Source: Atribacterota bacterium
Lineage (GTDB): Bacteria; Atribacterota; Phoenicimicrobiia; Phoenicimicrobiales; Phoenicimicrobiaceae
Assembly (NCBI GenBank): GCA_038203565.1
Contig: JBBRDV010000010.1
Coordinates: 1 to 34,360 of the forward strand
DNA length: 34,360 nucleotides
Direction of reading: 5' to 3'
Shown here: in pieces, positions 1 through 34,227 of the stretch
Position numbering within the stretch: position 1 is the first letter of the stretch
Layout: each line of letters opens with the position of its first letter
The notes under the pieces: generated by a model
Databases searched by the model: none
Told to the model about the DNA's origin: nothing
What the model saw: the letters and a program-made list of their open reading frames with translations, nothing else
Translations under genes and position numbers: made by a program

Positions 1-106
1 ATATAGTATAGCGTATATTTTTGAATTAAAAAAATGTTTGTACTAATCAAATTAAAAGCTTAAAGTGAAAAGCGAAAAACCATAATTCAAAACTCTTATT
101 TAGTTA

Positions 107-134
107 GTACGGGCAGACCTTGTGTCTGCCCGTA
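107..134 (+). repeat. REP-like hairpin
   Basis: tacgggcagac-cttgt-gtctgcccgta forms an 11-bp perfect GC-rich stem, beginning in a GTAC tetranucleotide (GTAG-like). Confidence 0.6.
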
Positions 135-254
135 GGACAAAGGCGTTCCCCGTTTTCACGAGGAGAGGCTTGCCTGTTTATTAGTTTTTGGCTATTAGTT
201 ATCAATATACAATTAAATATTTAAAACTTTTTTATATAAAGTATTGATTTTAAT

Positions 255-313
255 GTAGGGGTCGAATTTATTCGACCCGTCCTTATTGCGGGCTTGATGT
301 ATCAAGCCCCTAC
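255..313. repeat. GTAG-family REP doublet (REPIN-like)
   Basis: GTAGgggtcgaa-ttta-ttcgaccc at 255..278 (+) and GTAGgggcttgat-ac-atcaagccc at 313..290 (-), in inverted orientation. A truncated gtaggggcac lies at 341..350. Confidence 0.8.
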
Positions 314-360
314 ATTATTACTCGCTGTTGTTATGATTTTGTAGGGGCACTTAGTAATTT

Positions 361-750
361 TCACTTATCAAATAGACCCTCCAGCATTACTTGGGCAATA
401 GCATATTCTTTGGCGTGAGAAATGCTAATAAAATATTTGCTAACTCCTTTTGTTGAAGCGATATTTTTTAATTTTCCAGATGTACCTATGATTGGTTGCC
501 CTAGTTCATCATTTTTTATTTCAATCTCTTTCCAGTTAGCCTCTCTTAATCCTAATCCCAATGCTTTTAATAGTGCTTCTTTAGCAGCAAATTTTCCGGC
601 ATAAGATTGATATTTGTTGCCCTTCTTTTTTTCACAATATTCTTTCTCCAGGGAGGTAAATATCCTGAAAATAAAATTATCTCCCCACTTTTTAATTATT
701 TTTTCTATTCTTTCTATTTTAACTAAATCTATTCCACAACCTATAATCAA
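361..750 (-). CDS. acpS: Holo-[acyl-carrier-protein] synthase
   Basis: GIDLV N-terminus, FAAKEA..KALG and ISISH motifs; TTG start. Confidence 0.95.
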   Translation of the reverse strand: MIIGCGIDLVKIERIEKIIKKWGDNFIFRIFTSLEKEYCEKKKGNKYQSYAGKFAAKEALLKALGLGLREANWKEIEIKNDELGQPIIGTSGKLKNIASTKGVSKYFISISHAKEYAIAQVMLEGLFDK

Positions 751-802
751 TAATATTATTCCTTTTTCTTACTATTTTTTAGCTGTAAATGAATAAGCAT
801 TT

Positions 803-1198
803 TTAAAACTCTCTATAATAAAAATTATCCTCTTTTATCTTTCCTTTTAGCCATTTTAATAAATATTTTTTAACTATGTTTCTGCTAACGGGCATTAAAA
901 AAATAAAACCTAATATATCTGTAACAAAACCGGGAGTAAGAAGTAATATCCCTCCGGCCAGGATAATTGCTCCCTGAATTAAGCTGTCCCCTGGCATGAT
1001 TCCCTCATTTAAATCATTCTGAATCTTCCTTAAAATCATAAACCCTTGACTTTTTACCAGGTATGCTCCAATGGTCCCGGTTAAGATGATTACACCAATT
1101 GTAGTTAGACTCCCTATCTTTTTCCCCACTTCAATTAGAATATACAGTTCTGTTACTGGTACTATTAAAAATAATATTACTAGTTTAGCAAAAAACAT
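803..1198 (-). CDS. fxsA: FxsA family membrane protein
   Basis: P..E..ILIEVG and GGILLLTPGFVTDILG motifs; 131 aa and hydrophobic. Confidence 0.9.
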   Translation of the reverse strand: MFFAKLVILFLIVPVTELYILIEVGKKIGSLTTIGVIILTGTIGAYLVKSQGFMILRKIQNDLNEGIMPGDSLIQGAIILAGGILLLTPGFVTDILGFIFLMPVSRNIVKKYLLKWLKGKIKEDNFYYREF

Positions 1199-1269
1199 GG
1201 TTTGCTCCCATTTATTAGTAATCTAATATTTTTTAAATTGATTTTATCTAACAATAGTTTTAAATTAAT

Positions 1270-1707
1270 CTAAGAATTGCAATATTCCTCTACTTCTTTC
1301 TGCATCTCTTTAGATAGAGCTATAAATTTCCCCTTTGCCTCGGTTAATAAAGTGCCATCTTGCGAACGAGCTTCCGCTTGAGCCTCAATCATTCTGCCTA
1401 AATCTTTAGTCATCTGTGCGGTAAAGATAATTTTTTCACCTACCAGGGCTTTTTTTCTGTATTTGATGTTTATTTCTACGGTCATAGTCATAACATCCTT
1501 AGTTATGATTGCAGTTCTGCCCATTATCTCATCTAAAATAGAAAATAATATTCCTCCGTGAACAATTCCTTTAAAACCTTGATGTTTTGATTCGGGAATA
1601 AACTCCGCTTTAATTTTATCCTGATCTCTAAAAAAAGTAATGTTTAAACCGATAGGATTATCTTTCCCACAAACAAAACAGTTTTTATATCCTGGTAAAC
1701 CTTGCAA
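1270..1707 (-). CDS. PaaI-family hotdog-fold thioesterase
   Basis: CFVCG..NPIGL and HQG..GIVHGG..ILDE motifs; GGGAGG RBS upstream of a TTG start. Confidence 0.85.
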   Translation of the reverse strand: MQGLPGYKNCFVCGKDNPIGLNITFFRDQDKIKAEFIPESKHQGFKGIVHGGILFSILDEIMGRTAIITKDVMTMTVEINIKYRKKALVGEKIIFTAQMTKDLGRMIEAQAEARSQDGTLLTEAKGKFIALSKEMQKEVEEYCNS

Positions 1708-1730
1708 AAGTAAAACCTCCCTGCATTAAT

Positions 1731-1847
1731 TAGTCGCTAGCCTGTCTGCGCCTGCCTGTGCGTTGCACGCAGACAGGTGCAACGCACAGGTAGATGAATA
1801 GTCGTTAGTGTATCGTATCGCGTATTACGTATCGAGTATCTCGTAAA
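1731..1847. repeat. Heptamer arrays (TAGTCGT/TAGTGAA family, then NCGTATY family) interrupted by a mini-element
   Basis: tagtcgc tag[insert]tgaa tagtcgt tagtgta tcgtatc gcgtatt acgtatc gagtatc tcgtaaa. Confidence 0.85.
1741..1794. mobile_element. Nested pair of 27-bp CCTG...CAGG palindromic mini-elements
   Basis: The inner copy 1751..1777 is the reverse complement of cctgtctgcgtgcaacgcacaggcagg. Joining 1741..1750 to 1778..1794 gives a 25/27 match to the same unit. Confidence 0.75.
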
Positions 1848-1851
1848 GATA

Positions 1852-2919
1852 CTAATTTCTGACTATTTCTTTTATCGCCCTTATAGTGGCATAAATATCA
1901 TCTTCAATAATTCCGTAATGAGTAACCAAACGAACTTTGGTAGGTGGTCGCGGTGAACCCAATATATTATATTCTGCTAATTTGGGTAAAAACTGGAAAG
2001 TGTCCATACTTGATTCCTGAAGGTCAAAACATGCCATATTAGTCTGAATTGTCTCTAAATCAACTTTTATTCCACCTATGTCAGCTAAACCTTCGCCTAA
2101 AATACGGGCGTTTTTGTGGTCTTCTTTTAATCTATCTACCATTTTTTCAAGGGCAATTATACCAGCTGCTGCTAAAATACCTGCCTGCCTCATCCCTCCA
2201 CCCAGCATCTTTCTATTTTTACGTGCTCTTTTAATAAATTCCTTTGAACCGGCCAACATCGAACCTACCGGAGCGCTTAAACCTTTGGAAAGACAGAACA
2301 TCACTGAATCAACATTTTTAGCAAGAAGAACAGGTTCAATATTTAATGCGATGGCGGCATTAAATATTCGAGCACCGTCTAAATGAATTTGAATATTCCG
2401 TTGATGGGCCAATTGGCAGATTTCTTCGGTTACTTTCGGTGGGACAATTGTTCCACCTGCTCGATTATGGGTATTTTCCAAACAGATTAAAGTTGTTTTA
2501 GGGTAATGAAGATTTTCATCCCTCAATGCCATTTTAATATCCTGAGTATCAGGAATTCCTTTATCCCCGACAATCAACCGTGGTATCACTCCTGCTACTG
2601 CCGACATACCGCCTACCTCGTAATAATAAATATGGGAGTCCATCTCTAAAATTACTTCATCTCCTCTTTGGCAATGAGTCAATACCGCGATAAGATTACC
2701 CATAGTGCCACTGGGCACAAATAACGCTGCTTCTTTCCCAATTTTTTTTGCAGCCAATTCTTCCAATCGATTAACTGTAGGGTCCTCTTGGTAAACATCG
2801 TCTCCCACTTTTGCATTATTCATAGCATCTCGCATCTCATCAGTTGGCAAGGTAACTGTATCACTTCTTAAATCAATTTTTTTTAACTGATAATTATTAA
2901 TAATTTCCACCTCCAGCAT
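1852..2919 (-). CDS. ltaE: Low-specificity L-threonine aldolase
   Basis: IDLRSDTVT, GDDVY..DPTV, SGTMGN, HLDGAR and CLSKGL (PLP lysine) motifs; exact start uncertain. Confidence 0.95.
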   Translation of the reverse strand: MLEVEIINNYQLKKIDLRSDTVTLPTDEMRDAMNNAKVGDDVYQEDPTVNRLEELAAKKIGKEAALFVPSGTMGNLIAVLTHCQRGDEVILEMDSHIYYYEVGGMSAVAGVIPRLIVGDKGIPDTQDIKMALRDENLHYPKTTLICLENTHNRAGGTIVPPKVTEEICQLAHQRNIQIHLDGARIFNAAIALNIEPVLLAKNVDSVMFCLSKGLSAPVGSMLAGSKEFIKRARKNRKMLGGGMRQAGILAAAGIIALEKMVDRLKEDHKNARILGEGLADIGGIKVDLETIQTNMACFDLQESSMDTFQFLPKLAEYNILGSPRPPTKVRLVTHYGIIEDDIYATIRAIKEIVRN

Positions 2920-2981
2920 ATAAATTAAAGAATTTAAAGCTTTTTTCTTATATTGTATTTCGCATTTAATATTAGATATAT

Positions 2982-3147
2982 TATAGCGTACAGCTAATAC
3001 GTTTAGTTAGATAGTTAGTTGGTTATTTGGTTTGCTAGTTATACAGCTTTTGTAGGTAAGTTTTGTAATTTGTAATATGTGGCAAGTAATCTGTTTTTGT
3101 AAACTTTAAGATATAAGCTTATTACTCATTACATACTACTCATTACT
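2982..3147. repeat. Mixed octamer and heptamer arrays, including an inverted GTAAT heptamer pair
   Basis: tgtaatt tgtaata tgtggca agtaatc (3064..3091) faces tattact cattaca tactact cattact (3120..3147). An 8-periodic tagtt/tggtt run lies at about 3003..3040. Confidence 0.7.
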
Positions 3148-3167
3148 GTATTCCTACACGCTTGCAA

Positions 3168-4496
3168 TTAATATATCATCAAATATCTATCCAATTCCCA
3201 CTGGTGAACTTGAATTCGATAGTCTTCCCATTCTTCTCTTTTGGCCTCGATATAATTTTCTAAAATATGATCGGTTAAAGCAGATTTTACTACTTTGTCC
3301 TTATCTAATTCTAACAAAGCTTCTTCCAAGGTAGAAGGTAAACTTTCAATACCCAAAGACTTTTTCTTCTCTTTGCTCATAGTATAAATATTTTGACTTA
3401 CCGGCTCTCCCGGATTAATCTGGTTCTTAATTCCATCTATTCCTGCTTTTAGAATTACGGCAAAAGCTAAATAAGGGTTACATGATGGATCAGGACTTCT
3501 CAGCTCAGCTCTGGCACCTTCTCCTCTAACTGCAGGTACTCTAATTAAAGGGCTGCGATTTCTCTCTGACCAGGCAATATAAACCGGCGCTTCATAACCA
3601 GGAGTTAACCTCTTATAAGAATTTACCAAAGGATTGGTAATAGCAGTAAAACCTTTGGCATGTCTTAATAATCCACCGATGAAATATAAGGCTTCTTCGC
3701 TCAGTTCATATTTTCCCCTTGGGTCATAAAAGACATTCTTACCATTTTTTAATAGTGAAATATGAGTGTGCATACCAGAACCATTTATTCCGAAAACAGG
3801 TTTGGGCATAAAGGTAACATGTAAATTATGTTTTAGAGCTATGGTTTTACCGGTGAGCTTTAAAGTCATTATTCTATCGGCAGCAGTGAGAGCATCACAA
3901 TATCTGAAATCAATCTCATGCTGACCGGGAGCAACTTCGTGATGTGAGGCCTCAATTTCAAATCCCAATTTTTCCAAGGATATTACCATATCCCTTCTCG
4001 CTTCTTCCCCTAAATCAACAGGCAAAAGATCGAAGTACCCTCCTCGATCATGAGTCTTGGTAGTCGCTTCTCCTCCCTCATTTCTAAAAAATAGAAAAAA
4101 TTCCATCTCTGGTCCAAAGTTAGTGGTAAATCCCATCTCTTCTACTTCTTTTAGCACTCTCTTTAGGTTAGTTCTGGGGCAACCATCAAAGGGGGAACCA
4201 TCAGGATTATAGACATCACAGGTAATTCGAGCAACATCTTTTTCTTCTTCCCAAGGGTTTACCATAAAAGTAGAATAATCTGGTTTTAAAACCATATCTG
4301 ATTCTTCAATCCGTACAAAACCCTGGATAGAAGAGCCGTCGAACATAATCTCCCCATTAAGGGCTTTTTTCAGTTCTCTTACCGGAATTTCTACATTCTT
4401 AGGCATTCCCAAAATATCGGTAAATCTCAATCTTATAAATTTTATATTTAGCTCTTTAGCCTTATTTAAAATCATTTCTTTAGTTATTTTTTCCAT
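3168..4496 (-). CDS. glnA: Glutamine synthetase type I
   Basis: [42 protein letters not shown] and ELRSPDP motifs; 442 aa, GSI-alpha size. Confidence 0.97.
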
Positions 4497-4537
4497 TTAT
4501 ATCTTCCTCCTTAAAGTTTTTTTAATACTTTTTTACA

Positions 4538-4566
4538 AGTATACTCTTTCTCTGATAATTTTACAA
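4538..4566 (-). promoter_or_regulatory. Putative sigma70-type promoter of glnA
   Basis: TTGTAA-17 nt-TATACT on the minus strand, about 40 bp upstream of the glnA ATG. Confidence 0.55.
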
Positions 4567-4579
4567 AATAGATTATTAT

Positions 4580-4614
4580 TCGTATTACGTATCGAATATC
4601 CTGTACTTCGTAAA
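4580..4614. repeat. NCGTATY heptamer array
   Basis: tcgtatt acgtatc gaatatc ctgtact tcgtaaa; closely resembles 1820..1848. Confidence 0.7.
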
Positions 4615-4741
4615 GGAAAAGAAAAGATTCAGAAAAAAATAATATAGAAAATGCAAGAAAATTACTATTCCTTTCTTTATCTTACTGTCCTATTAAAGTT
4701 TACACGAGCACTAATCAATAAAATACTATTCTTTCCTGTTT

Positions 4742-6571
4742 TTATTCCACGGTAACGCTTTTAGCTAAATTTCTCGGTTTATCTACATCGCATCCCAATC
4801 TGTCAGCAATGTGATATGCAAATAATTGTAAAGGTATAACCGATAGAATAGGATATAGTATATCCAAAGTTTTAGGGATATAAAAAACTTTATCTGCTAT
4901 ATTGATAATTTCTTTATCACCTTCTGTAGCAATGGCTAATACCAGAGTATCTCGAGCTTTAACTTCCTTTATATTATTAATCATTTTAGTATAAACTTTA
5001 TCCTGGGGTACGATTACCACTACCGGAAAAGTCTTATCTAAAAGAGCAATAGGACCATGTTTCATCTCTCCTGCTGCATACCCTTCAGCATGAATATAAG
5101 AAATCTCTTTAAGTTTTAAAGCCCCCTCTAAACCGATAGGATAATTAATCCCTCGCCCCAAATAAAGAAAATTATGATATTTATGAAATTCTTCACTTAA
5201 TTTAACAATCTCTGGGTCTTTAAGTAAAATAATCTCGACTGTTTGAGAAATATTTATTAACTCGGAAATTATTTTCTTAATCTCCGATGAATCAAGAGTC
5301 TCCCTGACCTGAGCAAAATAGAGAGATAGTATGTAAAGGCACATTAATTGACCAATAAAAGCTTTTGTGGTAGCCACACCTATTTCCGGACCCGCCTTAA
5401 TATACATTACACTATCTGCCTCCCGACTGATAGTGCTTCCCCTTACATTGGTAAGAGCCAATATATAAGAACCAGCCTTCCGGCAAGCTCTTAAAGCAGC
5501 TAGGGTATCCGCAGTTTCTCCTGATTGAGATATCAGAATGGCTAGATCTTTTTTGCCCAGTAATATTTTTCTATATCTAAATTCAGAACTATAATCCACC
5601 TCTACCGGAATACCAGTTAACTCCTCAAAAATATATTTACCTACTAAAGCTGTATAATAAGAAGACCCGCAAGCTAAAATAGATATTCTTTCTATTTCTT
5701 TAATTTTATCTAAAGGAAGAGATAGTTTGTTAAGTTCCAGCGCTTTTGTAGATAGATTAATTCTATCTTCTAAACTACTACGAATAACCATAGTTTCTTG
5801 AAAAATTTCTTTTAGCATAAAATGTTTATATCCACTCTTTTCTGTCATCTCTTCATCCCAATCAATATTTATTACTTCTTTATGTAAAATTATACCTTCG
5901 GAATTGATTATCTCTACTCCATCTTTAGTTATAGTAGCAATTTCTCTTTCTTCCAAAAAGATTACCCTTTTGGTATAACTAAGTAAAGCGGGGATATCAG
6001 AAGCTAAAAACATTTCTCCTTCTCCTATTCCGATAATCAAGGGGCTCCCGCAACGTGAAGCAATAACTTTTCCCGGATCACGAGTAGAAATAACTCCGAT
6101 AGCGTAAGAACCTTCTATTTCTTTTAAAGATTCCTTTACTGCTAAAGTAAAATTATTCTGATAATTACTTTCTATCAAATGGGGAAGAACCTCGGTATCT
6201 GTTTCAGATATAAAGTTGTGCCCTTCCAAAATTAATCTTTCTCTTAAAGACGTATAGTTCTCTATAATACCATTATGGACTACCACTATTTCTGAATTAC
6301 ATCCATTGTGAGGATGCGCATTTATATTGTTGGGTTTCCCGTGAGTAGCCCATCTGGTATGCCCTAATCCTATATTACCTTTCGGGGCACCTTTTTCTAA
6401 TAAATTTTCTAATTTGGCTACCTTTCCTTTACATTTTACCATTTTTATTTTATTATCTTTCAATACAGCAATACCTGCAGAATCATATCCCCGATATTCT
6501 AATTTCTTTAATCCATCTAACAAAATGGGTACTGCTTCTTTTGAACCAATATATCCAATTATTCCACACAT
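4742..6571 (-). CDS. glmS: Glutamine--fructose-6-phosphate aminotransferase
   Basis: MCGI N-terminus, GHTRWATHG, SQSGETAD, EMKHGP and the C-terminal PRNLAKSVTVE. Confidence 0.98.
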   Translation of the reverse strand: MCGIIGYIGSKEAVPILLDGLKKLEYRGYDSAGIAVLKDNKIKMVKCKGKVAKLENLLEKGAPKGNIGLGHTRWATHGKPNNINAHPHNGCNSEIVVVHNGIIENYTSLRERLILEGHNFISETDTEVLPHLIESNYQNNFTLAVKESLKEIEGSYAIGVISTRDPGKVIASRCGSPLIIGIGEGEMFLASDIPALLSYTKRVIFLEEREIATITKDGVEIINSEGIILHKEVINIDWDEEMTEKSGYKHFMLKEIFQETMVIRSSLEDRINLSTKALELNKLSLPLDKIKEIERISILACGSSYYTALVGKYIFEELTGIPVEVDYSSEFRYRKILLGKKDLAILISQSGETADTLAALRACRKAGSYILALTNVRGSTISREADSVMYIKAGPEIGVATTKAFIGQLMCLYILSLYFAQVRETLDSSEIKKIISELINISQTVEIILLKDPEIVKLSEEFHKYHNFLYLGRGINYPIGLEGALKLKEISYIHAEGYAAGEMKHGPIALLDKTFPVVVIVPQDKVYTKMINNIKEVKARDTLVLAIATEGDKEIINIADKVFYIPKTLDILYPILSVIPLQLFAYHIADRLGCDVDKPRNLAKSVTVE

Positions 6572-6732
6572 TTTTTAATCCTTTCTTAAATTAAATATTT
6601 GTTTTTAAAAATAAATACCCTATTACCAATCCATTAAGAAAGATAATAGGGTTCTCCATTTTTTCTGCTTCTACAATAAATACCTTAATATCTAAGAACT
6701 TTTTTAAGCAATTGTATTATAGCATAGCATAG

Positions 6733-6840
6733 CTAAAACTTAAGGTTTAAAGCGAATAACTAAAAACTATCATTCAAAATTTGAAACTTTTTCGAAATTA
6801 TGAGTTTTAGTTTTATACTTTACACTTTTAGCTTTACGTT
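6733..6840. repeat. AAAAGCG/AAAAACT heptad element with both inverted arms
   Basis: aaaact taaggtt taaagcg aataact aaaaact atcattc aaaat ... ttatgagttttagttttatactttacacttttagcttta; related to 54..94, 33582..33660 and 17597..17640. Confidence 0.65.
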
Positions 6841-6911
6841 ATCTTTTAAAAAACTGTCCTTGATAGAATAGAAAAACCTGTGTAAGAATACTTAAGAATG
6901 GATTTATTTTG

Positions 6912-7078
6912 CCATAAAAACCTTTTTGTGCTTGCAATTACTCACAAGTTTTACAGGTTTTCTAAGGATCGGCCAACCCAGGAGCATCCGTCGAATTATC
7001 GATAAACTCCTTCCTCGTCAACTTACCCTATCAAAATACTTAGTCCTTTATATTGAGTAAGCTCTGGCGCTTGTATTT
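6912..7078 (-). ncRNA. glmS ribozyme (GlcN6P-activated self-cleaving riboswitch)
   Basis: Minus strand reads A^GCGCCAG...P1...GUUGACGAGGAAGGAGUUUAUCGAUAAUUCGACGGAUGCUCCUGGG, followed by a P4-like stem, upstream of glmS. Predicted cleavage site is between 7071 and 7070; ends are approximate. Confidence 0.9.
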
Positions 7079-7131
7079 AATTTTTTAAATTTATATTTCT
7101 TTTATCCCCTCACTTAATTAGTCGTTACTAT

Positions 7132-8478: not shown

Positions 8479-8493
8479 AAACTACCTCGATAT

Positions 8494-8531
8494 TAATTCA
8501 CCAATTGGTAAACCGGATAATTGGTGAATTA
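8494..8531. repeat. Intergenic hairpin (13-bp stem) related to 13963..14008
   Basis: taattcaccaatt ... aattggtgaatta. Confidence 0.7.
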
Positions 8532-8537
8532 TAAATC

Positions 8538-10552: not shown

Positions 10553-10565
10553 TTGATTCTCCCCT

Positions 10566-12629: not shown

Positions 12630-12727
12630 TAGTCGTTACTGCATTCCTATGCTAACGACCAGGTAATCCACAAGCAACCAACTATTTCTTGGCGAGATAC
12701 AATTCACGAGATACGAGATACGATTTT
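12630..12727. repeat. gtcgtta/taacgac hairpin and CGAGATA heptamer array
   Basis: gtcgtta..gcat-tcct-atgc-taacgac (12632..12659); cgagata caattca cgagata cgagata cgatttt (12693..12727). Confidence 0.7.
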
Positions 12728-12751
12728 TGTGTAGTTTTCAGATAAAAAACT

Positions 12752-13791: not shown

Positions 13792-13798
13792 GCTAAAA

Positions 13799-13968
13799 TA
13801 GTATATAGTATGTAGTATTTAGTATATAGTTAGATTCGGATTTTATATTTCGTGAATCGTATCTTGAATTTCGGATATATTTAAATAGCTAAATGCTATA
13901 CGCTATAAACTATACGTTATAAAGGCTTCGAGTATTAAATTCTGGTTTCTTTACGCGATACGAAATAT
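13799..13968. repeat. Interleaved heptamer arrays of at least two families
   Basis: tagtata tagtatg tagtatt tagtata; atttcgt gaatcgt atcttga atttcgg; ctaaatg ctatacg ctataaa ctatacg; acgcgat acgaaat. Confidence 0.8.
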
Positions 13969-17307: not shown

Positions 17308-17315
17308 TTATTATA

Positions 17316-17727
17316 TAGTATTTAGTATATAGTATGTAGTAAAGAAGTAAAGAGATAGAATACAGAATTCAGCACATAAATTCGTATTTCGTACCTTGTG
17401 AATCGTATCTCATGTTTTAGCGTATAGCGTACAGCGGATATAGGATAGGGACGTATCGCATATGGCCATAAAAAGTTCTGCAAAACCATAGAGAGTAAAA
17501 AGATTTAGTGTAGGAGTTTTATTTATCAAGCTCTCGCAAAACACGAGTGGAATAAATTCGACCCCTACATTAAAATCAATACTTTATATAAATAGTTTTT
17601 AGCTTTGAATTATGGTTTTTCGTTTTAAGTTTTTAATTTAATTAGGACGAGTATTTTATTAATCCAAACTATACGCTAAACGCTACCCGCTCTACGATAT
17701 AAGCAATACTTGATACTTAATAATACA
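17316..17727. repeat. Nested repeat cluster: outer TAGTAT arms and inner TAGCGTA arms enclosing a REP doublet and an AAAAGCG-family motif
   Basis: tagtatt tagtata tagtatg (17316-), tcgtatt tcgtacc (about 17382-), tagcgta tagcgta cagcgga (17418-), REP doublet 17510..17568, heptad motif on - at 17597..17640, ctatacg ctaaacg ctacccg ctctacg (17669-), caatact tgatact (17704-). Confidence 0.8.
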
Positions 17728-19814: not shown

Positions 19815-19869
19815 ATATAACAATAACCTCCCCACTTTCTTAAAACTTTATAATAGAAAATTTTAACTT

Positions 19870-19993
19870 AAATTAGTTAACTGGTTTAATAGTTAGCTAA
19901 TTAGCTAGTTTAATACTAATAATTCATTTATTAATTAACCATTAACCAGCTAACAAATTTATCTTGCATTTTATATTTGAAACTAACGACTAA
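19870..19993. repeat. Inverted octamer-like arrays plus a CTAACGA unit
   Basis: attagtta actggttt aatagtta gcta.. facing taaccatt aaccagct aac; actaacgactaat directly after the rpsK stop. Confidence 0.6.
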
Positions 19994-20938: not shown

Positions 20939-20959
20939 TTATTTCCTTCCTCCATGAAA

Positions 20960-21124
20960 TAGTATATCGCATTTCGTATATAGTATATCGGAAAAAATCA
21001 TTACACCTAATTCTTAATAACAATACTCTCTGGGGACGATTCTCACTATATTGCATATCATAAAATTATATCACAAAAGTGCGGTGCCTAATACGATATA
21101 CGAAATACGACATACAATATACTA
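20960..21124. repeat. Inverted heptamer-array pair around a unique spacer of about 98 bp
   Basis: Left arm tagtata tcgcatt tcgtata tagtata tcgg; right arm aatacga tatacga aatacga catacaa tatacta. Confidence 0.85.
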
Positions 21125-22158: not shown

Positions 22159-22162
22159 TAAT

Positions 22163-22813: not shown

Positions 22814-22879
22814 AACTTTCCCTTTCTTTTAAATCATTAATACAACTTTAATTAGTCGTTAGTCCAGATACAACTGAAA

Positions 22880-25589: not shown

Positions 25590-25655
25590 TATTAGCACTC
25601 CTTTCCTATAAAATAGTTGTCAGTGAACAGTCGTTAAAAGTGTTATCTTGATTGA

Positions 25656-26195: not shown

Positions 26196-26211
26196 ATAAA
26201 ACCTCCCATTT

Positions 26212-26251
26212 TCGTATTGCGTATCGCGTATATCGTATCTCGTATTGCGAC
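26212..26251. repeat. NCGTATY heptamer array
   Basis: tcgtatt gcgtatc gcgtata tcgtatc tcgtatt gcgac, immediately upstream of the rplF RBS. Confidence 0.85.
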
Positions 26252-26296
26252 TTTGCCCTACTCCCTGTAAATATTATTAAGAGGAGGGTAAAAAAG

Positions 26297-26357
26297 CCTG
26301 CCCCTGAGAAAGCACCTGTCTGCGTGCAGGCGCGCACAGGCAGGCCGCACAGGCAGA
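26297..26357. mobile_element. Second CCTG...CAGG mini-element, probably nested in a degenerate copy
   Basis: cctgtctgcgtgca-ggcgc-gcacaggcagg (26315..26344) is flanked by cctgcccctgagaaagca and ccgcacaggcaga. Confidence 0.65.
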
Positions 26358-26413
26358 AAAGAAGCGATCTTCTGGATTCTAAATTTATTGCTATATACTA
26401 TAGAATAATTTAT

Positions 26414-26812: not shown

Positions 26813-26874
26813 ATATAATATCCTCCTCTCTTTTAAATCCAACTCATTATAATAGATTTCGTTAAATATATCTT

Positions 26875-27060
26875 TTACCAGCTTGACTTAGTTATTCCTG
26901 GCAATTCTCCTCTGTGGGCCATTTGTCTAAAACATATTCTGCATATACCAAATTTCCGCATATAGCCTCGAGGTCTTCCGCAAATATTGCAACGAAAATA
27001 TTTCCTTACTTTATATCTGGGTTCTTTTTTAGCTTTTACTACTAGGGATGTTTTGGCCAC
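26875..27060 (-). CDS. rpsN: 30S ribosomal protein S14, short zinc-binding type
   Basis: RC.ICGR, CR.CFR and PG..KSSW motifs; 61 aa. Confidence 0.98.
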
Positions 27061-27103
27061 ACTATTTCCTCCTTTTTAGTACATAATATAACTTACTTAT
27101 AAC

Positions 27104-27249
27104 TTGTATATCGTATTGCGTATTGCGTAAAATTCAAAACTTATCATAAAACTGCTTGGGTACCCAGAATTTAGGAGCCAGGGATCTGGTTTCTGATTCC
27201 TAACTTTTTCACGATATACGAAATACGAGATACGCGATACGAAATATAC
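27104..27249. repeat. Inverted heptamer-array pair with an internal second-family inverted pair
   Basis: Left arm ttgtata tcgtatt gcgtatt gcgtaaa; right arm ttcacga tatacga aatacga gatacgc gatacga; inside, cagaatt taggagc cagg faces tctggtt tctgatt cctaact. Confidence 0.85.
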
Positions 27250-27250
27250 A

Positions 27251-27790
27251 CTATTTTTTAAAAGGAACACCCATTAATTCTAAAAGGGCTTTCCCTTCTT
27301 CATCATTTAAGGCACTTGTTACAATAGTAATATTCATTCCTAAAGTATTGGTTACCTGATCAAAATCTATCTCGGGAAAAATTAATTGTTCTTTTACACC
27401 TACAGTATAATTCCCTCTTCCATCAAAAGAATCAGAGGGAATACCTCTAAAATCTCGAATTCTGGCGATAGCTATATTAATAAATTTATCTAAGAATTCA
27501 TACATTCTATCACTCCGTAAGGTAACTTTGCAACCTACTGGCATATCCTTTCTAACTCCAAAGTTAGATATAGATTTTTTTGCCCGAGTAATGATAGGCC
27601 TTTGTCCGCTAATAACAGCTAATTCCTTTACTGCTTCATCCATAATTTTTGAATCTTTTGTAGCTCTTCCTAACCCGATATTAATTATTGTTTTCTGCAA
27701 TCTGGGAACAGCCATCACGCTTTTATATTTAAATTTTTTCATCATCTCTGGTACAACTTGTTTCAAATATTTATCTTTCAATCGGGGCAT
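27251..27790 (-). CDS. rplE: 50S ribosomal protein L5
   Basis: GCKVTLR, RIRDFRG, FDGRGNY and IFPEI motifs. Confidence 0.98.
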   Translation of the reverse strand: MPRLKDKYLKQVVPEMMKKFKYKSVMAVPRLQKTIINIGLGRATKDSKIMDEAVKELAVISGQRPIITRAKKSISNFGVRKDMPVGCKVTLRSDRMYEFLDKFINIAIARIRDFRGIPSDSFDGRGNYTVGVKEQLIFPEIDFDQVTNTLGMNITIVTSALNDEEGKALLELMGVPFKK

Positions 27791-27801
27791 AGTTCAACCT
27801 C

Positions 27802-28134
27802 CTAAACCTTATCTATTATTTCTCCGCATTTTTTACACACTCTCACTCTTTTACCCTCTTTAATTCTCTCTCTTCTAATGGCAGTAGGTGTATTACATTT
27901 ATTGCAAATTAATCTGATGTTAGAAGTATGCAATGCGCCTTCCTGCTTAACTATTCCGCCTTGAGGAACCTTTTGGGTGGGTTTAGAGTGTTTCTTTAAA
28001 AAATTAACACCTTCAACTATTACTTCCATCTTCTTGGGGAAAATACGAACAATTTTTCCTTTCTTTCCTTTATCTTCTCCAATGATAATTAATACTTTAT
28101 CACCTTTTCTAAAACTAACTTTATTGTTAACCAA
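27802..28134 (-). CDS. rplX: 50S ribosomal protein L24
   Basis: KOW motif GD.V.II.G.DKGK.G, VEGVN and GGI...E motifs. Confidence 0.97.
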
Positions 28135-28152
28135 ATCGCTATCCCTCCCTTT

Positions 28153-28521
28153 TTATACTACCTCAGGCGCTAGTGAAATTATTTTCATAAAATTTTTATT
28201 TCTTAATTCTCGAGCAACTGGTCCAAATATTCTGGTCCCAACCGGTTCATTTTGAGCATTAATAATAACTGCTGCATTATCGTCAAACCTAATATAAGAA
28301 CCATCTGATCGACCAAGTTCTTTCTTGGTTCGTACAACAACTGCCTTAATAACTTCACCTTTTTTGCAGGTTCCTCCCACTGATGCTACTTTAACTGAAG
28401 CAACAATAATGTCTCCTATCCTAGCATATCTCCTACGGGAACCGCCTAAAACTTTTATACATTGTATTTCTTTAGCACCCGAATTATCCGCAACGAATAA
28501 ACGTGTTTGCATCTGTATCAT
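28153..28521 (-). CDS. rplN: 50S ribosomal protein L14
   Basis: [26 protein letters not shown] and SLAPEV motifs. Confidence 0.98.
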
Positions 28522-28550
28522 CTTAACTACCTTCTCTCCTTAATCATAAT

Positions 28551-28571
28551 TAGTGAATAGTCGTTAGTAGA
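28551..28571. repeat. TAGTGAA/TAGTCGT heptamer array
   Basis: tagtgaa tagtcgt tagtaga; related short copies at about 7119, 22853 and 25614. Confidence 0.65.
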
Positions 28572-28654
28572 ACATCCAACTCTCTTGTTTATTATTTAGT
28601 TAGTATTACTTAAAACAACTAACTTACAGTATGGTCATAGTTGTCTGATTTATC

Positions 28655-28912
28655 TTATTTCGTTCTTTCTAATATTTCCGTAACTCTCCATCTTTTTCTT
28701 TTGCTTAAAGGTCGAGTTTCAGCAATTTTTACTTTATCGCCGATACTACAGATATTTTTTTCATCATGTGCCATAAATTTAGTTGATTTTTTTATCCTTT
28801 TTTTGTAAAGAGGATGTGATACCAGGTATTCAACTTTTACAACTATACTCTTTTCCATATTATTACTTACGACTTTTCCAATTTTTGTTTTATTTTTTTT
28901 CCCGGACAGCAT
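28655..28912 (-). CDS. rpsQ: 30S ribosomal protein S17
   Basis: G.VVS..M.K, HPLY.K, AHDE and ETRPLSK.KRW motifs. Confidence 0.98.
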
Positions 28913-28930
28913 TTAACCCTCCTTTTTATT

Positions 28931-29137
28931 TCAATTTACTTTGTTTTTTTCTAATTCAATTTCTCTTAAAATTGTTTTTGCTCTAGCAATATTATGCCTT
29001 ACTTCTTTTATCCTCATAGGATTACCTAATTGTCCTGTAACAACTTGAAATCTCAAGCTAAATAATTCATCTTTAAAATCAGTCAGTTTCTTTTGTAATT
29101 CTTCTAATGACAAATCTCTTAATTCACTTGCTTTCAT
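28931..29137 (-). CDS. rpmC: 50S ribosomal protein L29
   Basis: ELF.LRFQ...GQL.NP and IAR.KT motifs. Confidence 0.97.
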
Positions 29138-29560
29138 TTATCCCACCACCTGTTCATTTCTGGAAAGAAAACGAGTTTTTATGGGTAACTTATGTGCGGC
29201 TAACCGCATCGCTTCTTTAGCTAAACTTAGTTCAACTCCGCCTAATTCAAATAATACCTTTCCCGGTTTTACTACTGCCACCCAATGGTCGGGGGCTCCT
29301 TTTCCTTTACCCATCCTAGTTTCTGCTGGTTTTTTAGTCACTGATTTATCAGGAAACATTCTTACCCAAACTTTTCCACCTCTTTTTATTGCATGAGTAA
29401 TAGCAACCCGTGCCGATTCTATTTGAGCACTGGTTATCCAATGAGGCTCTAATGCCTGCAAGCCAAAATCTCCAAAAGCAATAAAATCTCCTTTGTGGGC
29501 ACACCCTTTCATGGTTCCCCTATGTGTTTTTCGATATTTTGTTCTAGCTGGTTGTAACAT
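29138..29560 (-). CDS. rplP: 50S ribosomal protein L16
   Basis: [21 protein letters not shown] and A.HKLP motifs. Confidence 0.98.
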
Positions 29561-30278
29561 CTTTCCGTACTCCTTCTCTACTTGATTCTTCTACTTTCTT
29601 GCCAGTTAAAACCTTGTTTATTTCTTTCTGTTTAGATACCTCTTTGTTTTTTGCTGGAAGTACTTCTCCTCGGAAAATCCACACCTTAACACCAATTTTA
29701 CCATAAGTTGTATTGGCTTCGGCAAAACCATAATCTATGTCCGCTCGCAAAGTATGGAGAGGTAACCTACCTTCTAAATGCCATTCTGTTCTTGCTATTT
29801 CGGCCCCGCCTATTCTACCCGAACAAGATACTTTCATACCTTCAGCACCCATTTTCATAGATCGGCTGGTTGCCTGCCTCATTGATCTTTTAGTAGAGCC
29901 TCTTCTTTCCAGTTGTTCAGCAATACTCTCAGCAACTAACTGAGAGTCTAACTCAGGTTTTTTTACTTCAATAATTTTTAACTGTAAATCATTTTTTACA
30001 AATTTAGATAATTCTTCTTTTAATTTAGCAACTTCCGCCCCTTTTCGGCCTATTACAATACCTGGCCTTGCGCAATTTATAGTTAACCTCACTCGATCAG
30101 CTATACGTTCAACTTCGACACAAGAAATTCCAGCATGTTTTAAACGATTTTTAATATATTTTTTTATTTTGTAATCTTGATATATATTTTCTGCATAACC
30201 CTTTTTTGCAAACCACTTATCATCCCAATCTTTTATAATTCCAATTCTTAATCCTTTTGGATGTACTTTCTGTCCCAA
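29544..30278 (-). CDS. rpsC: 30S ribosomal protein S3
   Basis: [19 protein letters not shown] and [11 protein letters not shown] motifs; TTG start. Confidence 0.98.
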
Positions 30279-30623
30279 TTACTTTCCCTCCCCTTTATGA
30301 TCAACTATAATGGTAATATGACTAGTTCTTTTTCTTATTTTGCTTGCTCTACCCATAGCCCGAGGTCTAAATCTTTTCGTTATAGGTCCTTCATCAGCAT
30401 AGGCTTCGGATATATATAAATCTTCTACGTTTATATCATTATTATTTTGTGCATTATAAATCGCAGAGTTTAAAACATTGTATACCATTTTAGCTGAACG
30501 GTTAGGAAGAAACTTCATGGTTAAGAGAGCTTCACCAGCATTCTTGCCCCGAATAATATCTAAAATCTGTCTTCCCTTACGAGCAGATATAGGTAAATAT
30601 TTACCTACTGCCTTTATACTCAT
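30279..30623 (-). CDS. rplV: 50S ribosomal protein L22
   Basis: S.RK.R...D.IRG, PRAMGRA and KRTSHIT motifs. Confidence 0.98.
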   Translation of the reverse strand: MSIKAVGKYLPISARKGRQILDIIRGKNAGEALLTMKFLPNRSAKMVYNVLNSAIYNAQNNNDINVEDLYISEAYADEGPITKRFRPRAMGRASKIRKRTSHITIIVDHKGEGK

Positions 30624-30773
30624 TGTTTTCCTCCTAATTTAGTTTATTTGTTTTTCTGCAATAAAAAAAATTAATTGTTTGGTAATCTTTAATAAATTTA
30701 AATAAAATTTCTTAACTTACCTATATAAGTAATCAAAAGATTTTTTTAATATTTTACTACCTAATATTATTTA

Positions 30774-31058
30774 CTACTTTACCGAAGTTGATTTTTCAGT
30801 ATGAGCACTATGCCCCTTAAAAATCCTAGTAGGGGAAAATTCTCCTAATTTATGACCTACCATGTTTTCGGTAATATACACTGGGATATGTCTTTTACCG
30901 TTATGTACGGCAATGGTATGTCCAACCATTATAGGAAAAATCGTTGACCTTCTAGACCAAGTTTTAATTATAGTTTTCTGTCTCTTCTGATTTAGTTCTC
31001 TAATTTTACTTAATAATTTTTCATCAATATAAGGTCCCTTTTTTAAAGATCTAGACAT
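30774..31058 (-). CDS. rpsS: 30S ribosomal protein S19
   Basis: RSLKKGP, KTWSR.STI and MVGHKLGEF motifs. Confidence 0.98.
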
Positions 31059-31083
31059 CTAAAACAACTGCCTCCCTTATTTA

Positions 31084-31917
31084 CTATTTTTTCGTCCTTC
31101 TTTTTACAATATATTTATCTGAAGGTTTATTCTTTTTTCTGGTCTTATACCCCTTTGCCAGCATACCGGTTGGAGAGCAAGGGTGTCTACCTCCAGAACT
31201 TTTTCCTTCTCCTCCACCCATGGGATGATCAACAGGATTCATGGCTACCCCTCTAACCGTTGGTCTTATCCCTAACCATCTACTTTTGCCTGCTTTACCA
31301 TACGATAAATTTTCATGAATAAGGTTACCAATTTGCCCGATACTGGCTTTACACTCCAAATGAATTAACCTTACTTCACCGGAAGGCAATCTAACATGAG
31401 CATATTTTCCTTCTTTGGCCATAAGTTGAGCTACTGTTCCGGCTGAACGAACTAATTTACCGCCTTGTCCTGATCTTAATTCAATATTATGAATTAATGT
31501 ACCAGTAGGGATATCTTTTAATGATTTTGAATTTCCTACCTTAATATCTGCATCTCTTCCGGATATAATTACATCTCCCACTTTTAAATTTGCCGGACAT
31601 AGGATGTATCTCTTTTCTCCATCATAATATTTAAGTAAAGCTATTCGTGCTGAACGATTAGGATCATATTCAATACTAGAAACCTTTGCCGGAATTCCTT
31701 CTTTTTGACTCCTAAAATCAATTATTCTATACTTTCTCTTACTCCCACCGCCTTGATGCCTAACTGTTAGTCTGCCCTGATTATTTCTTCCGCCTCTTTT
31801 TTTAAGTCCTACGGTTAGAGATTTTTCTGGCTTATCGGTAGTTATTTCATCAAAGGTTGAAATGGTCATAAATCTTCTCCCAGGAGAAGTAGGTTTGAAT
31901 TTTTTTATCTCCGCCAT
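31084..31917 (-). CDS. rplB: 50S ribosomal protein L2
   Basis: [14 protein letters not shown] and [16 protein letters not shown] motifs. Confidence 0.98.
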
Positions 31918-31952
31918 TTAATCTACACCATCCTTAAATATCTTTTTAAGCA

Positions 31953-32240
31953 TTAGATATTTTCTAATTCTTTAATTTTTTCACCCTTTTTTAGGGTAAC
32001 TATCGCTTTCTTCCAATGCGATGTCTTTCCAGAGTATTTTCCTAAACTCTTCTTTTTACCTGGCATCTTCATAATATTTACTTTTGCGACTTTCGTTTTA
32101 AATTTTTCTTCAATAGATTTCCCAATTTCAGTAGAATTGGCTTTCCAATCTACCTTAAATACATATTTATTTTCTTTCTTTAATCTTACGGTTTTCTCTG
32201 AAATTATTGGTTCTAATATAATATCTCTATCTGAAGGCAT
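31953..32240 (-). CDS. rplW: 50S ribosomal protein L23
   Basis: P.ISEK, Y.F.V and WKKAIVTL motifs. Confidence 0.97.
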   Translation of the reverse strand: MPSDRDIILEPIISEKTVRLKKENKYVFKVDWKANSTEIGKSIEEKFKTKVAKVNIMKMPGKKKSLGKYSGKTSHWKKAIVTLKKGEKIKELENI

Positions 32241-32863
32241 TATATTAACACCTCCTCAATTCGCTTTAAAGCTTTTTTGGTAATTATTATCTTTTCATGG
32301 TTTATAAGATCATAGGTATTTATTTTGGAAACGGGCAAAACCTGTGCCCCTTTAATATTTCTTGCTGCTTGTACTATACCGTTATCTTCTTCTTCAATTA
32401 TTATTAATGGTTTTTTAAATGCTTGCAAATTTATTAAAATTTCCACCATCTTACTAGTCTTATTTTCTTCTAATGATAAATTATCTACAATTATAATTTC
32501 TTTATTCTCTAACTTATCTGATAGCACCGATTTTATGGCGGCAACTTTCATTTTTTTAGGCAAAGAAAAGGAATAGTCTCTCGGAGCGGGTCCAAATACA
32601 ATTCCGCCTCCTACCCAAATAGGTGAACTATTAGTTCCTGCTCTAGCCCTTCCAGTTCCCTTTTGTTTCCAGGGTTTAGCTCCTCCACCTCTTACTTCGC
32701 CTCTATTTTTTGTAGAAGCAGTCCCTCTTCTTCTGTTTGCTAAATAACGCTTAACTACTTGATGAACAAGATATTTATTTACTTTAGTATTAAAAATATT
32801 ATCTTTTAGGGAAACTTCTCCAACATTTTCTCCTTTAATATTATGAACTGATAAAGCAATCAT
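32240..32863 (-). CDS. rplD: 50S ribosomal protein L4
   Basis: V.GGG.KPW.QKGTGRAR.G and GGG..FGP motifs; start set at ATG 32863. Confidence 0.97.
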   Translation of the reverse strand: MIALSVHNIKGENVGEVSLKDNIFNTKVNKYLVHQVVKRYLANRRRGTASTKNRGEVRGGGAKPWKQKGTGRARAGTNSSPIWVGGGIVFGPAPRDYSFSLPKKMKVAAIKSVLSDKLENKEIIIVDNLSLEENKTSKMVEILINLQAFKKPLIIIEEEDNGIVQAARNIKGAQVLPVSKINTYDLINHEKIIITKKALKRIEEVLI

Positions 32864-32899
32864 GAACAATCCTCCTTCCCTGGTAAAAATATACTTAAA

Positions 32900-33523
32900 T
32901 TACCCATTTTTATTAATTACAAGCACTGCTCCTTTTGCACCGGGAACTGAACCTCTAACTAAAATTAAATTTCTTTCGAGGTTAATTTTTACTATCTCTA
33001 TATTTTTCACCGTAACTCTATCTGTTCCCATATGCCCTGGCAATTTTTTCCCTTTAAATACTCGAGCCGCATCTGTAGCACCCATTGAGCCAACTGATCT
33101 AAAATACTCCTTCTGGCCATGGGTCTTAGGCCCACCTGAAAAATTATGTCTCTTAATTGCACCAGCAAACCCTTTTCCCTTAGATATTCCTACAATATCT
33201 ACCTTGTCACCTTCTTTAAAAATATCTACCTTTACTTCTGCACCAGATGAATATTTATTGGAATCTTCAATTTTAAATTCTCTGATATGCTTTATTGAAC
33301 TTACTTTGTATTTATTAAGATGACCGGTTATGGGTTTGGAAACTTTTTTCTCTTTTACTTCCTTAAAACCTAATTGAACTGCATTATAACCATCCTTTTC
33401 TATAGTTTTCTTCTGTACTACCTGACAGGGGCCGGCTAAAATTACAGTTACCGGAATAGATTCTCCATTTTTGGCAAATATCCTTGTCATTCCTAATTTC
33501 TCTCCCAATATTCCTGCTACCAT
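32900..33523 (-). CDS. rplC: 50S ribosomal protein L3
   Basis: K.GMT, PVTV, SKGKGF.G, K.PGHMG and G.VPG motifs; start set at ATG 33523 after GGAGGTG. Confidence 0.97.
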   Translation of the reverse strand: MVAGILGEKLGMTRIFAKNGESIPVTVILAGPCQVVQKKTIEKDGYNAVQLGFKEVKEKKVSKPITGHLNKYKVSSIKHIREFKIEDSNKYSSGAEVKVDIFKEGDKVDIVGISKGKGFAGAIKRHNFSGGPKTHGQKEYFRSVGSMGATDAARVFKGKKLPGHMGTDRVTVKNIEIVKINLERNLILVRGSVPGAKGAVLVINKNG

Positions 33524-33551
33524 TTTTACATTCACCTCCGAGTCTAATATT

Positions 33552-33660
33552 TCGTATTGCGTATCGCGTCAGTATTAAGCTAAAAACTTAAAGCGAAAAG
33601 CGAAAAACCATAATTCAAAATTCAAAACTTTTTCTTTTAATTTTAAGTTTTAAGTTTTTG
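33552..33660. repeat. NCGTATY heptads plus AAAAGCG-family heptad element
   Basis: aaaaact taaagcg aaaagcg aaaaacc ataattc aaaa (33582..33620) matches 54..92 at 37/39; followed by an inverted ttttaag ttttaag arm. Confidence 0.8.
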
Positions 33661-33701
33661 TAAAATGTACGAGAAAATTATCTGTTTTGTTTGCCAACCT
33701 T

Positions 33702-34010
33702 TTATTCCAGAGTTTTGAGCTCAATATCTACGCCTGATGGTAAATCAAGATGCATTAATGCTTCTATAGTTTTGGTGGAGGGCTCTAAAATATCAATCAA
33801 TCTCTTGTGAGTTCTCATTTCAAACTCTTCCCTTGACTTTTTATCCACATGTGGTGAACGTAAGACACAATATTTATTTATTTCTGTTGGTAAAGGTATA
33901 GGACCAGAAAATTTTCCGCCAATTCTTTTTACAGTATCTACTATCATTAAGGTAGAATTATCTAATATTCTGTGATCATATGCTTGTAAGCGAATTCTTA
34001 TTTTTTGCAT
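33702..34010 (-). CDS. rpsJ: 30S ribosomal protein S10
   Basis: KIRIRL.AYDH, GPIPLPT, RSPH..K.SRE.FE and LP.GV motifs. Confidence 0.98.
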
Positions 34011-34040
34011 TAACTTTTTATTTTACCTCCCTATTGCAAT

Positions 34041-34227
34041 TCGTATCGAGTATCGCGTATCGCGTGAAACTCAAAAGTATTTCGGATAATGTAATATTTT
34101 TTAAAGGGCGAATAATCCACCCTAGGTTATTATTGGGGTGTATGCAATACACCCCTACTTTTTGCTAATACTATCTCTAATCGCCTTTCCTACTAACGAC
34201 TAACGACTATTCACTAACGACTATTCG
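34041..34227. repeat. tuf-rpsJ spacer: two heptamer arrays flanking a GTAG-REP
   Basis: tcgtatc gagtatc gcgtatc gcgtgaa (34041..34068); REP on - GTAGgggtgtat-tgc-atacacccc (34158..34135), with a degenerate partner near 34103..34122; ctaacga ctaacga ctattca ctaacga ctattcg (34193..34227). Confidence 0.8.

Follow-up and report, generated by a model that had tools for sequence, protein, structure and literature searches.

Heptamer arrays in the ribosomal-operon spacers of an Atribacterota genome: probable relics of cassettes carrying a PF05635 four-helix-bundle gene

The window analysed here, 34,360 nucleotides of DNA from an Atribacterota bacterium, is the entire contig C10 (JBBRDV010000010.1) of genome G000 (GCA_038203565.1), an assembly of 1.97 Mb in 218 contigs with 34.8% GC. 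It carries the S10-spc-alpha ribosomal protein cluster and a cdaA-ybbR-glmM-glmS-glnA region, on the minus strand throughout; ribosomal and several other gene names were assigned from the translations. Many of the spacers contain degenerate tandem arrays with a 7-base period, which a first-pass annotation, made from the letters alone, had taken for the remains of cargo-less insertion elements or, failing that, for binding arrays. Here we describe, in related genomes, cassettes in which a gene of the four-helix-bundle family PF05635 lies between two inverted arrays ('arms') of 7- or 8-base units, and we argue that the window arrays are probably their relics, that is, the terminal arms of mobile cassettes that lost the gene and were piled up by insertion.

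Arrays of period 7 and 8 in the spacers

Autocorrelation over 18 window spacers gave peaks at lags 7 (z 11.1), 14 (z 8.4) and 21 (z 3.9), with lag 6 depleted. Genome-wide, 143 period-7 arrays were intergenic (46.7 per 100 kb) and 25 fell in ORF-masked DNA (ORF, open reading frame; 1.5 per 100 kb); a segment-wise count gave 137, compared with 1, 2 and 2 in three block shuffles. The first-pass annotation had staked its claim on an excess over shuffled spacers, and that excess is confirmed. The 8-periodic runs that it had also noticed form a smaller but genuine class (23 arrays versus 1, 4 and 1 in block shuffles), and the control periods 5, 6 and 9 gave 2, 3 and 6 arrays.

All the repeat families named earlier (NCGTATY, TAGTCGT/TAGTGAA, TAGTAT, TAGCGTA, TGTAAT, AAAAGCG and CAGAAT) were found. 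Unit sequence does vary while the period is kept, with 4–5 columns constant and 2–3 variable, a pattern that arises partly by construction because units were anchored on a 4-letter core. The long ribosomal spacers had been read correctly, measuring 178 bp (rpsJ-rplC), 190 bp (rplE-rpsN), 218 bp (rpsH-rplF), 187 bp (infA-rpmJ) and 180 bp (rpsK-rpsD). The description of arrays as inverted pairs stands for seven clear pairs (Table 1), but many window arrays are orphan, that is single, arms. The rpsS-rplV spacer (150 bp; 30624-30773) has no array despite its length; it is AT-rich, fairly stable across the genus, and may hold a conserved structure.

A PF05635 gene between inverted arms

A search of 61 genomes for PF05635 gave about 150 matches in 45 genomes, with up to 11 per genome; flanks were retrieved for most of the best-scoring ones, and profile TIGR02436 recovered largely the same loci. 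Eighty-eight near-complete ORFs passed a length filter, 77 of them with 150 nt on both sides. When inversion was defined as a flank score of at least 14 within 150 nt, 52 of these 77 genes had inverted flanks, compared with 26 of 2211 control ORFs of G000, so that the mention in the first-pass annotation of heptamer arrays beside four-helix-bundle genes of the intervening sequence (IVS) type is borne out. Direct flanks were found in 5 of the 77, and direct-repeat flanking, an idea that came from two atypical genes of G000, was dropped. In other phyla, 43 of 78 PF05635 loci passed the same inversion test, the best period being 7 in 45 and 8 in 20.

The cassettes occupy the gap that separates a stop codon from the ribosome-binding site of the following co-directional gene. 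The 5' arm, mostly of 3–5 units (56 of 88), runs from the upstream stop and is followed by an A/G-rich leader, the ORF, and a 3' arm that begins at or soon after the ORF stop and terminates just ahead of the next ribosome-binding site. The genes are mostly intact and almost always co-oriented with their neighbours (65:1 upstream, 63:2 downstream). Window arrays and printed cassette flanks all lie between protein-coding genes, none within an rRNA gene; 23S rRNA was not found in the G000 assembly. The nuclease cargo that had been envisaged between arms (GxxExxY, HUH or other) did not turn up in G000, where one of 2211 ORFs scored as arm-enclosed, an ordinary-looking gene of 604 codons. A short conserved word (GGACGACTGAAAGGAGTCC-like) with a ribosome-binding site follows 3' arms at unrelated junctions (L001:1115-1140, L002:1283-1305, also L045, L048 and L095) and is possibly another mini-element.

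The arm motif follows the protein clade, at least ten clades each having their own. In a tree obtained by quick search, with 35 of 83 inner branches open and 2 of 88 rows excluded for a short flank or for length, the clade motifs were CGTAT, AGTAT, TAGTCGT/TAGTGAA, AGTAA, AGCGT and ACAGA, with the period-8 motifs TTGGT and CCAAT in a clade of longer proteins; AAAAGCG and AAAAGTT arms belong to two further clades. Arm period also tracks the clade, 11 of 12 rows of one starred clade having period 8. Arm-profile similarity was 0.01 between proteins 30–40% identical, 0.31 at 60–70% and 0.79 above 90%. In three clades, moreover, the arms of a pair matched each other better than same-clade arms elsewhere (23.6 versus 16.6, 23.4 versus 16.8 and 19.6 versus 11.1). 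The arm families of the relatives' cassettes are those found in the window.

The closest named cassette protein, 81% identical, is from an Atribacterota metagenome-assembled genome. A Sedimentisphaerales gene, 64% identical to a CGTAT-clade query, has the same CGTAT arms, and outside the phylum similar loops after the residues NIAEG accompany similar arms by eye, a pairing that fits recognition of the arms by the protein and co-inheritance alike.

Decay, turnover and stacking at gene junctions

Intact, pseudogene, internally deleted and arms-only states link the cassettes to the window arrays. In a G000 relic at C2:48005-48124, 19 codons remain of a 119-codon ORF, whose two ends meet in a 13-base overlap between intact AGTAT arms; a differently truncated copy occupies the same junction in G005 (L202). 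Relics on C42 and C17 retain the leader and first codons, and relatives have pseudogenes with intact arms. Many matches in the relic search were arm-only or due to chance; three G000 relics are firm and two weak. Within the window, an alignment of the rpsJ-rplC spacer to the AAAAGCG-clade cassette covers the 5' arm and passes from there straight to the end of the ORF and the 3' arm; on this alignment the array is the two arms of one cassette, joined without the ORF.

Thirty-six of the 88 cassette loci could be placed in G000, where they fall at 22 distinct junctions. The ORF is present at none of these. The motif scan detected arms, in many cases of a different family, at 16 of them, and three short native junctions are armless. 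At ybbR-glmM, a TAGT-clade PF05635 gene or its remains was found in 3 of 29 family genomes (G018, G014 and G007), one copy being intact, one broken and one cut by a contig end, and the junction is bare in G023. Spacer alleles at this junction (L230, L234 and L247; L244-L246 and L248) are near-alike in widely separated branches, and also in another genus, yet differ between sister genomes, which suggests that junction contents have been exchanged laterally. Within one starred clade, five genomes have at clpP-clpX gene, gene, single arm, arms only and an empty junction, and empty junctions are interspersed among filled ones. Gain, replacement and loss thus probably all occur. The last codons of clpP (L203-L228) vary with the arm family that starts at the clpP stop, so that cassette turnover appears to rewrite protein C-termini.

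The ribosomal spacers also vary strongly. Among 28 same-family loci (17 same-genus), rplE-rpsN ranges over 69–358 bp, rpsQ-rplN over about 41–491 bp, secY-adk over 57–458 bp, rpsH-rplF over 45–338 bp and rplF-rplR over 25–287 bp, with the neighbouring rplX-rplE spacer constant at 10–11 bp; the same strong variation was seen in 46 metagenome loci. Apparent expansions at rplN-rplX (L010), rplW-rplB (L009) and map-infA (L007/L008) look like early stops or N runs and were discounted. In two genomes of the same phylum but other families, which have no PF05635 match, rpsJ-rplC, rplE-rpsN, rpsH-rplF and rpsK-rpsD are at most 36 bp, and no period-7 excess was found in their 3 and 5 scorable spacers. 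Orthologous spacers, which the first-pass annotation had proposed to compare, are therefore far from fixed, and both presence/absence and, at ybbR-glmM, ORF-bearing copies were found. RNA-library contigs of near relatives (4 runs, word share 0.32–0.41) bridge several spacers; among the joints listed none excises an arm pair exactly, and at one, seen in two runs, 137 different letters stand in place of the 110-nt rplE-rpsN core. Such contigs cannot show ends, strand or transcription, and the joints therefore count neither for nor against.

This turnover bears on the proposal that the arrays are host sites for a regulator of translation or transcription, as suggested for the TAACTGA repeats of Beggiatoaceae. 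The arrays do adjoin stops and ribosome-binding sites, also in ribosomal operons, where heptamers were likewise reported by MacGregor (2015; PMC4679880), and a fixed core with variable columns resembles a binding array. However, arm family, number and presence differ at the same junction between genomes a few per cent apart, ten or more unrelated motifs are used interchangeably, armless junctions are common, and the two PF05635-negative genomes examined manage with short spacers. We consider host regulation very unlikely, and the alternative of binding arrays goes unsupported.

Arms are stacked in a definite order. Of 80 distinct spacer architectures that contain both forms, 77 have every 5' form ahead of every 3' form (296 versus 5 pairs), as expected from repeated insertion into the middle of an older cassette; arm polarity counts in G000 are 175 versus 41, in families that overlap. 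Some stacks nest asymmetrically, and orphan arms are frequent. Cores that lack periodicity turn up again, together with their arms, at other ribosomal junctions and in either orientation, the best cases being 80–91% identical over 130–310 nt. The window rplE-rpsN unit shares ~84% identity over 130 nt with units at rpsQ-rplN (L013, G008) and infA-rpmJ (L008, G006), the 310-nt AGCGT unit at rplQ-ecfA1 is 80% identical to an rpsQ-rplN unit (L155), and relatives carry the window's AGCGT-armed unit at rpsQ-rplN, infA-rpmJ and rplE-rpsN. ORF-less units are therefore likely to be copied too. Because they occur in both orientations and gene-bearing cassettes do not, the orientation of the latter is probably set by selection for expression and not by insertion.

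Polymerase slippage has been proposed for the bacterial heptamer excess (cited in PMC4692102). It would make the arrays simple sequence repeats with PF05635 genes incidentally nearby, and unit number does vary between relatives. Slippage probably alters copy number, but it yields no fixed-order inverted pairs, clade-matched arms, ORF relics or relocated non-periodic cores. As an origin of the arrays it is already contradicted, and we give it almost no credence.

We conclude that the window arrays are probably cassette relics, and that the earlier inference of cargo-less insertion-element remains is supported by arm families, deletion relics, a gene-filled junction and spacer turnover. Several results weigh against this conclusion. 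Twenty-five of the 77 cassettes and 35 of the 78 cross-phylum loci are below the inversion threshold, and the two intact PF05635 genes of G000 lack inverted arms within 150 nt, having same-sense arms on both sides; in their clade (7 loci) the flanks are non-inverted, with a mean score of 7.4. Ribosomal spacers of up to 491 bp within rpsJ..rpoA at 40 genome loci, and of up to 498 bp at the 46 metagenome loci, yielded neither a PF05635 ORF nor a clear coding fragment (the sets overlap and kin are non-independent). Same-site descent from gene-bearing insertions is therefore inferred for those spacers, and their arrays may have arrived already ORF-less. Gain is not separable from loss on the clpP-clpX and ybbR-glmM trees, and filled/empty pairs, inspected by eye, gave no evident target-site duplication. 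The match of clade and motif is equally expected if gene and arms are merely co-inherited, and the advantage of own-pair arms is small or absent in five other clades, leaving 3 of 8 inverted-arm clades that co-vary. Finally, arms paired in the mRNA would place the stop close to the next start, and could make insertions tolerable even in ribosomal operons. Tolerance by folding away, as the first-pass annotation had it, fits the 6 of 13 array-bearing window spacers that fold better than shuffles at z <= -2; the remainder do not, and rpsJ-rplC folds worse than shuffles.

Table 1. Arrays, arms and stacks in the window, with the extent of the seven clear inverted pairs
Location	Coordinates	Features	Clear inverted pair
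Contig end	1..100	Stack: AGTAT-type arm 1-16; AAAAGCG-type 5' arm 55-100	
Directly past stop of Beta_elim_lyase gene (1852-2919)	1799..1845	Orphan TAGT-type and CGTAT-type arms	
	2984..3152	Stack of AGCGT-like, 8-periodic TTGGT and TGTAA/ATTAC arms	
	4581..4592	Short CGTAT-type arm	
	6734..6836	Inverted AAAAGCG-type arm pair without ORF	6734-6836
ybbR-glmM (8479-8537)	8494..8531	8-periodic CCAAT-type arm pair, hairpin z -3.6	8494-8531
rpsI/alanine-racemase-domain gene	12693..12729	CGTAT-type arm	
truA-rplM	13798..13923	AGTAT-type arm pair enclosing CGTAT-type arms	13798-13923
rplQ-ecfA1	17308..17720	Nested stack: outer AGTAT arms; inner AGCGT-armed unit of ~310 nt (about 17398-17700) enclosing GTAG-led hairpins and an AAAAGCG arm	
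rpsK-rpsD	19869..19992	8-periodic TTGGT arm pair; TAGT-type arm at rpsK stop	19869-19961
infA-rpmJ	20959..21124	CGTAT/AGTAT-type inverted arms (31 nt, 84% complementary); 103-nt non-coding core	20959-21124
secY-adk	22853..22864	Minimal TAGT-type 3' arm; orthologous spacers up to 458 bp	
rpsH-rplF	26213..26400	CGTAT-type 3' arm (26213-26249) preceding rplF ribosome-binding site; short AGTAT-type 5' remnant (about 26390-26400); small palindromic element between them	
rplE-rpsN	27106..27246	CGTAT-type arm pair, non-coding core	27106-27246
rpsQ-rplN	28551..28569	TAGT-type 3' arm	
rpsJ-rplC	33548..33657	Joined AAAAGCG-clade arms, no ORF (33577-33657); orphan CGTAT-type 3' arm (33548-33569)	33577-33657
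tuf-rpsJ	34036..34227	TAGT-type 5' arm at tuf stop (34191-34227); GTAG-led hairpin; CGTAT-type 3' arm (34036-34065)	

Other features accompany the stacks. Positions 1-141 are identical over 141 bases to the end of contig C39 (G000:C39:12232-12372), an assembly overlap, so that the two contigs probably join inside an arm stack. GTAG-led hairpins resembling repetitive extragenic palindromic (REP) sequences lie at 101-320, 17500-17580 and 34115-34150 and are often the innermost layer of a stack; a CGTC-type REP was seen in L001 at about 400-435. A palindromic element, CCTGYCTG...CAGRCAGG, has 27 copies in G000 by strict pattern, including 1741-1793 and 26314-26356 in the window. It inserts into arm stacks, and twice into a reverse transcriptase (RT) gene fragment (G000:C104), and is a separate mini-element. 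A second, divergent rplE-like gene (45% identity) lies outside the operon at G000:C150:1953-2465.

Possible movers of the cassettes and comparison with known systems

To our knowledge, PF05635 proteins have no known catalytic function, and for this reason we invoke host recombination or repair enzymes for any copying. The cassette protein matches the five-chain structure 2GSC (E 5.6e-21) and, below cut-off, the Avd-related family PF22296 (E 3.7e-9); a single-sequence structure model was discarded as too poor (predicted local distance difference test score, pLDDT, 45.6). All five protomers of the Avd pentamer contribute to binding of an RNA stem-loop, with flipped-out bases in the crevices (10.1101/2023.10.23.563531). 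From the clade match, the five-chain homologue, the arms of 3–5 units and the RNA binding of Avd, we predict that a pentameric protein would bind the arm repeat of its clade, about one unit per subunit, and would promote copying of the DNA between arms, either to a new junction or into an arm pair already present. That the protein binds the arms and mobilises the cassette we hold at somewhat less than an even chance.

Level with this proposal stands one in which the gene is a passenger and the arm-bounded hairpin is moved by an unlinked enzyme, for instance an HUH transposase of the REP-associated tyrosine transposase (RAYT) type or an RT, or by homologous exchange between arms and flanking genes, the match of motif and clade reflecting co-inheritance. 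It rivals the mechanism, not the origin of the arrays as relics, and we put it too a little short of even. The relocation of ORF-less units is in its favour, as are the GTAG-led hairpins inside many stacks (78 in G000), the six Y1_Tnp and two RT matches in G000, and the similar ybbR-glmM alleles in scattered branches, as exchange through flanking homology would give; the IVS protein of Coxiella was also judged probably not expressed and expendable (PMC4990558). Against it, the six Y1 genes have no heptamer arms by eye, four of them having short palindromes of their own, and the G000 RT looks like a broken group II intron enzyme. Moreover, the gene is in most cases intact and nearly always shares the orientation of its neighbours, a weak PF05635 match with retroelement-like surroundings (L192) has no arms, and the tracking of period 7 or 8 with protein clade is left unexplained. 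No mobilising enzyme was found among the Y1_Tnp and RT matches of G000. One RT locus (L178, G000:C54) is group II intron-like, split by a break and inside an IS3-like insertion sequence (IS) element. L192 itself (G009:C145) is Avd-like and lies beside a template-repeat-like sequence; it is likely a diversity-generating retroelement.

A broader conjecture, which we offer more tentatively still, is of a transposase-free element whose pentamer reads a 7- or 8-base code specific to its clade, set partly by the loop after NIAEG, and copies the DNA between arms into stop/start junctions. The heptamers of many phyla would then be the traces it left, and rRNA intervening sequences only one of the places where it lands.

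The proposed origin of the window arrays joins two orphan observations, the intergenic heptamer excess of bacteria and a widespread protein family whose structure is solved and whose function is not known, and it gives the heptamer repeats seen in many bacteria, so far unexplained, an origin that can be tested. It would account for the long, fast-changing spacers of otherwise conserved ribosomal operons here, and it cautions against reading such arrays as host regulatory sites. The whole life cycle, from intact cassette to arms alone, can be followed within one genus, with about ten natural protein/motif pairs. If the protein does recognise the arms, these pairs would be a compact natural set of repeat-reading nucleic-acid binders; if it also moves them, the mode of mobility, without a known catalytic enzyme, would be categorically new.

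REP sequences and bacterial interspersed mosaic elements (BIMEs) with their RAYTs, and miniature transposable elements with inverted repeats (MITEs), are non-coding inverted-repeat units of spacers, with autonomous and ORF-less forms and compound mosaics. The units described here likewise spread through spacers and, as in MITEs, a non-coding, inverted-ended unit is found at different junctions and in both orientations. They differ in that their ends are tandem arrays, that the gene sharing those ends is PF05635 and belongs to no transposase family, and that the GTAG-led hairpins are separate passengers. No target duplication was evident by eye, and the Y1 HUH gene flanked by arrays that is expected of a REP/RAYT system was not seen by eye in the six Y1_Tnp flanks.

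Cyanobacterial short tandemly repeated repetitive (STRR) sequences are intergenic heptamer repeats. The arrays here, tandem 7-mers in spacers far above chance, belong with them, in a class that is descriptive only. Heptamers of Xanthomonas (GGGAATC) and Nostoc (PMC4692102) and of Beggiatoaceae (TAACTGA; PMC4679880) share the period, the intergenic position near gene ends and a strand bias; those of Xanthomonas form convergent pairs comparable to our arms (PMC4692102), and the published repeats also lie within ribosomal protein operons and vary in length between relatives (PMC4679880, PMC4692102). In the parts of these papers available to us they are read as G-quadruplexes, slippage products or translational regulators and no gene is named, whereas the arrays described here are linked to a gene family by clade and by relics; the terms 'helix bundle' and 'intervening sequence' do not occur in PMC4679880.

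A close precedent is the 23S rRNA IVS (S23p) of Coxiella burnetii, in which a PF05635 gene occupies the loop of a stem formed by terminal inverted repeats; tandem GACAGAT heptamers, variable in number, precede the ORF and resemble the ACAGA-armed clade, and ORF decay and deletion are reported, as here (PMC4990558). The available text of that account makes no link between its heptamers and intergenic repeats (PMC4990558). The PF05635/S23p gene and the complementary termini around it are matched by the relatives' full cassettes, the window arrays themselves being ORF-less. Unlike the 23S IVS, our cassettes lie at stop/start junctions of protein-coding operons and not in rRNA helices, and they comprise many clades with their own arms, nested stacks and relocating ORF-less units. 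The 23S IVS is cut out of its transcript by RNase III without religation. An RNase III gene is present in G000.

Diversity-generating retroelements offer a related four-helix pentamer, Avd, that binds an RNA element encoded beside its gene (10.1101/2023.10.23.563531). In contrast to these, the printed cassette flanks have no adjacent RT, template or variable repeat, only ordinary operon genes, and the full-length RT of G000, which resembles that of a group II intron, is found on a different contig within an IS-like element. Our literature search, with most subscription journals outside its reach, found no description of a cassette of gene plus arms. What the present analysis adds is a clade-by-clade key to the window families, relics left by deletion, stacks with a fixed order and evidence that ORF-less units relocate.

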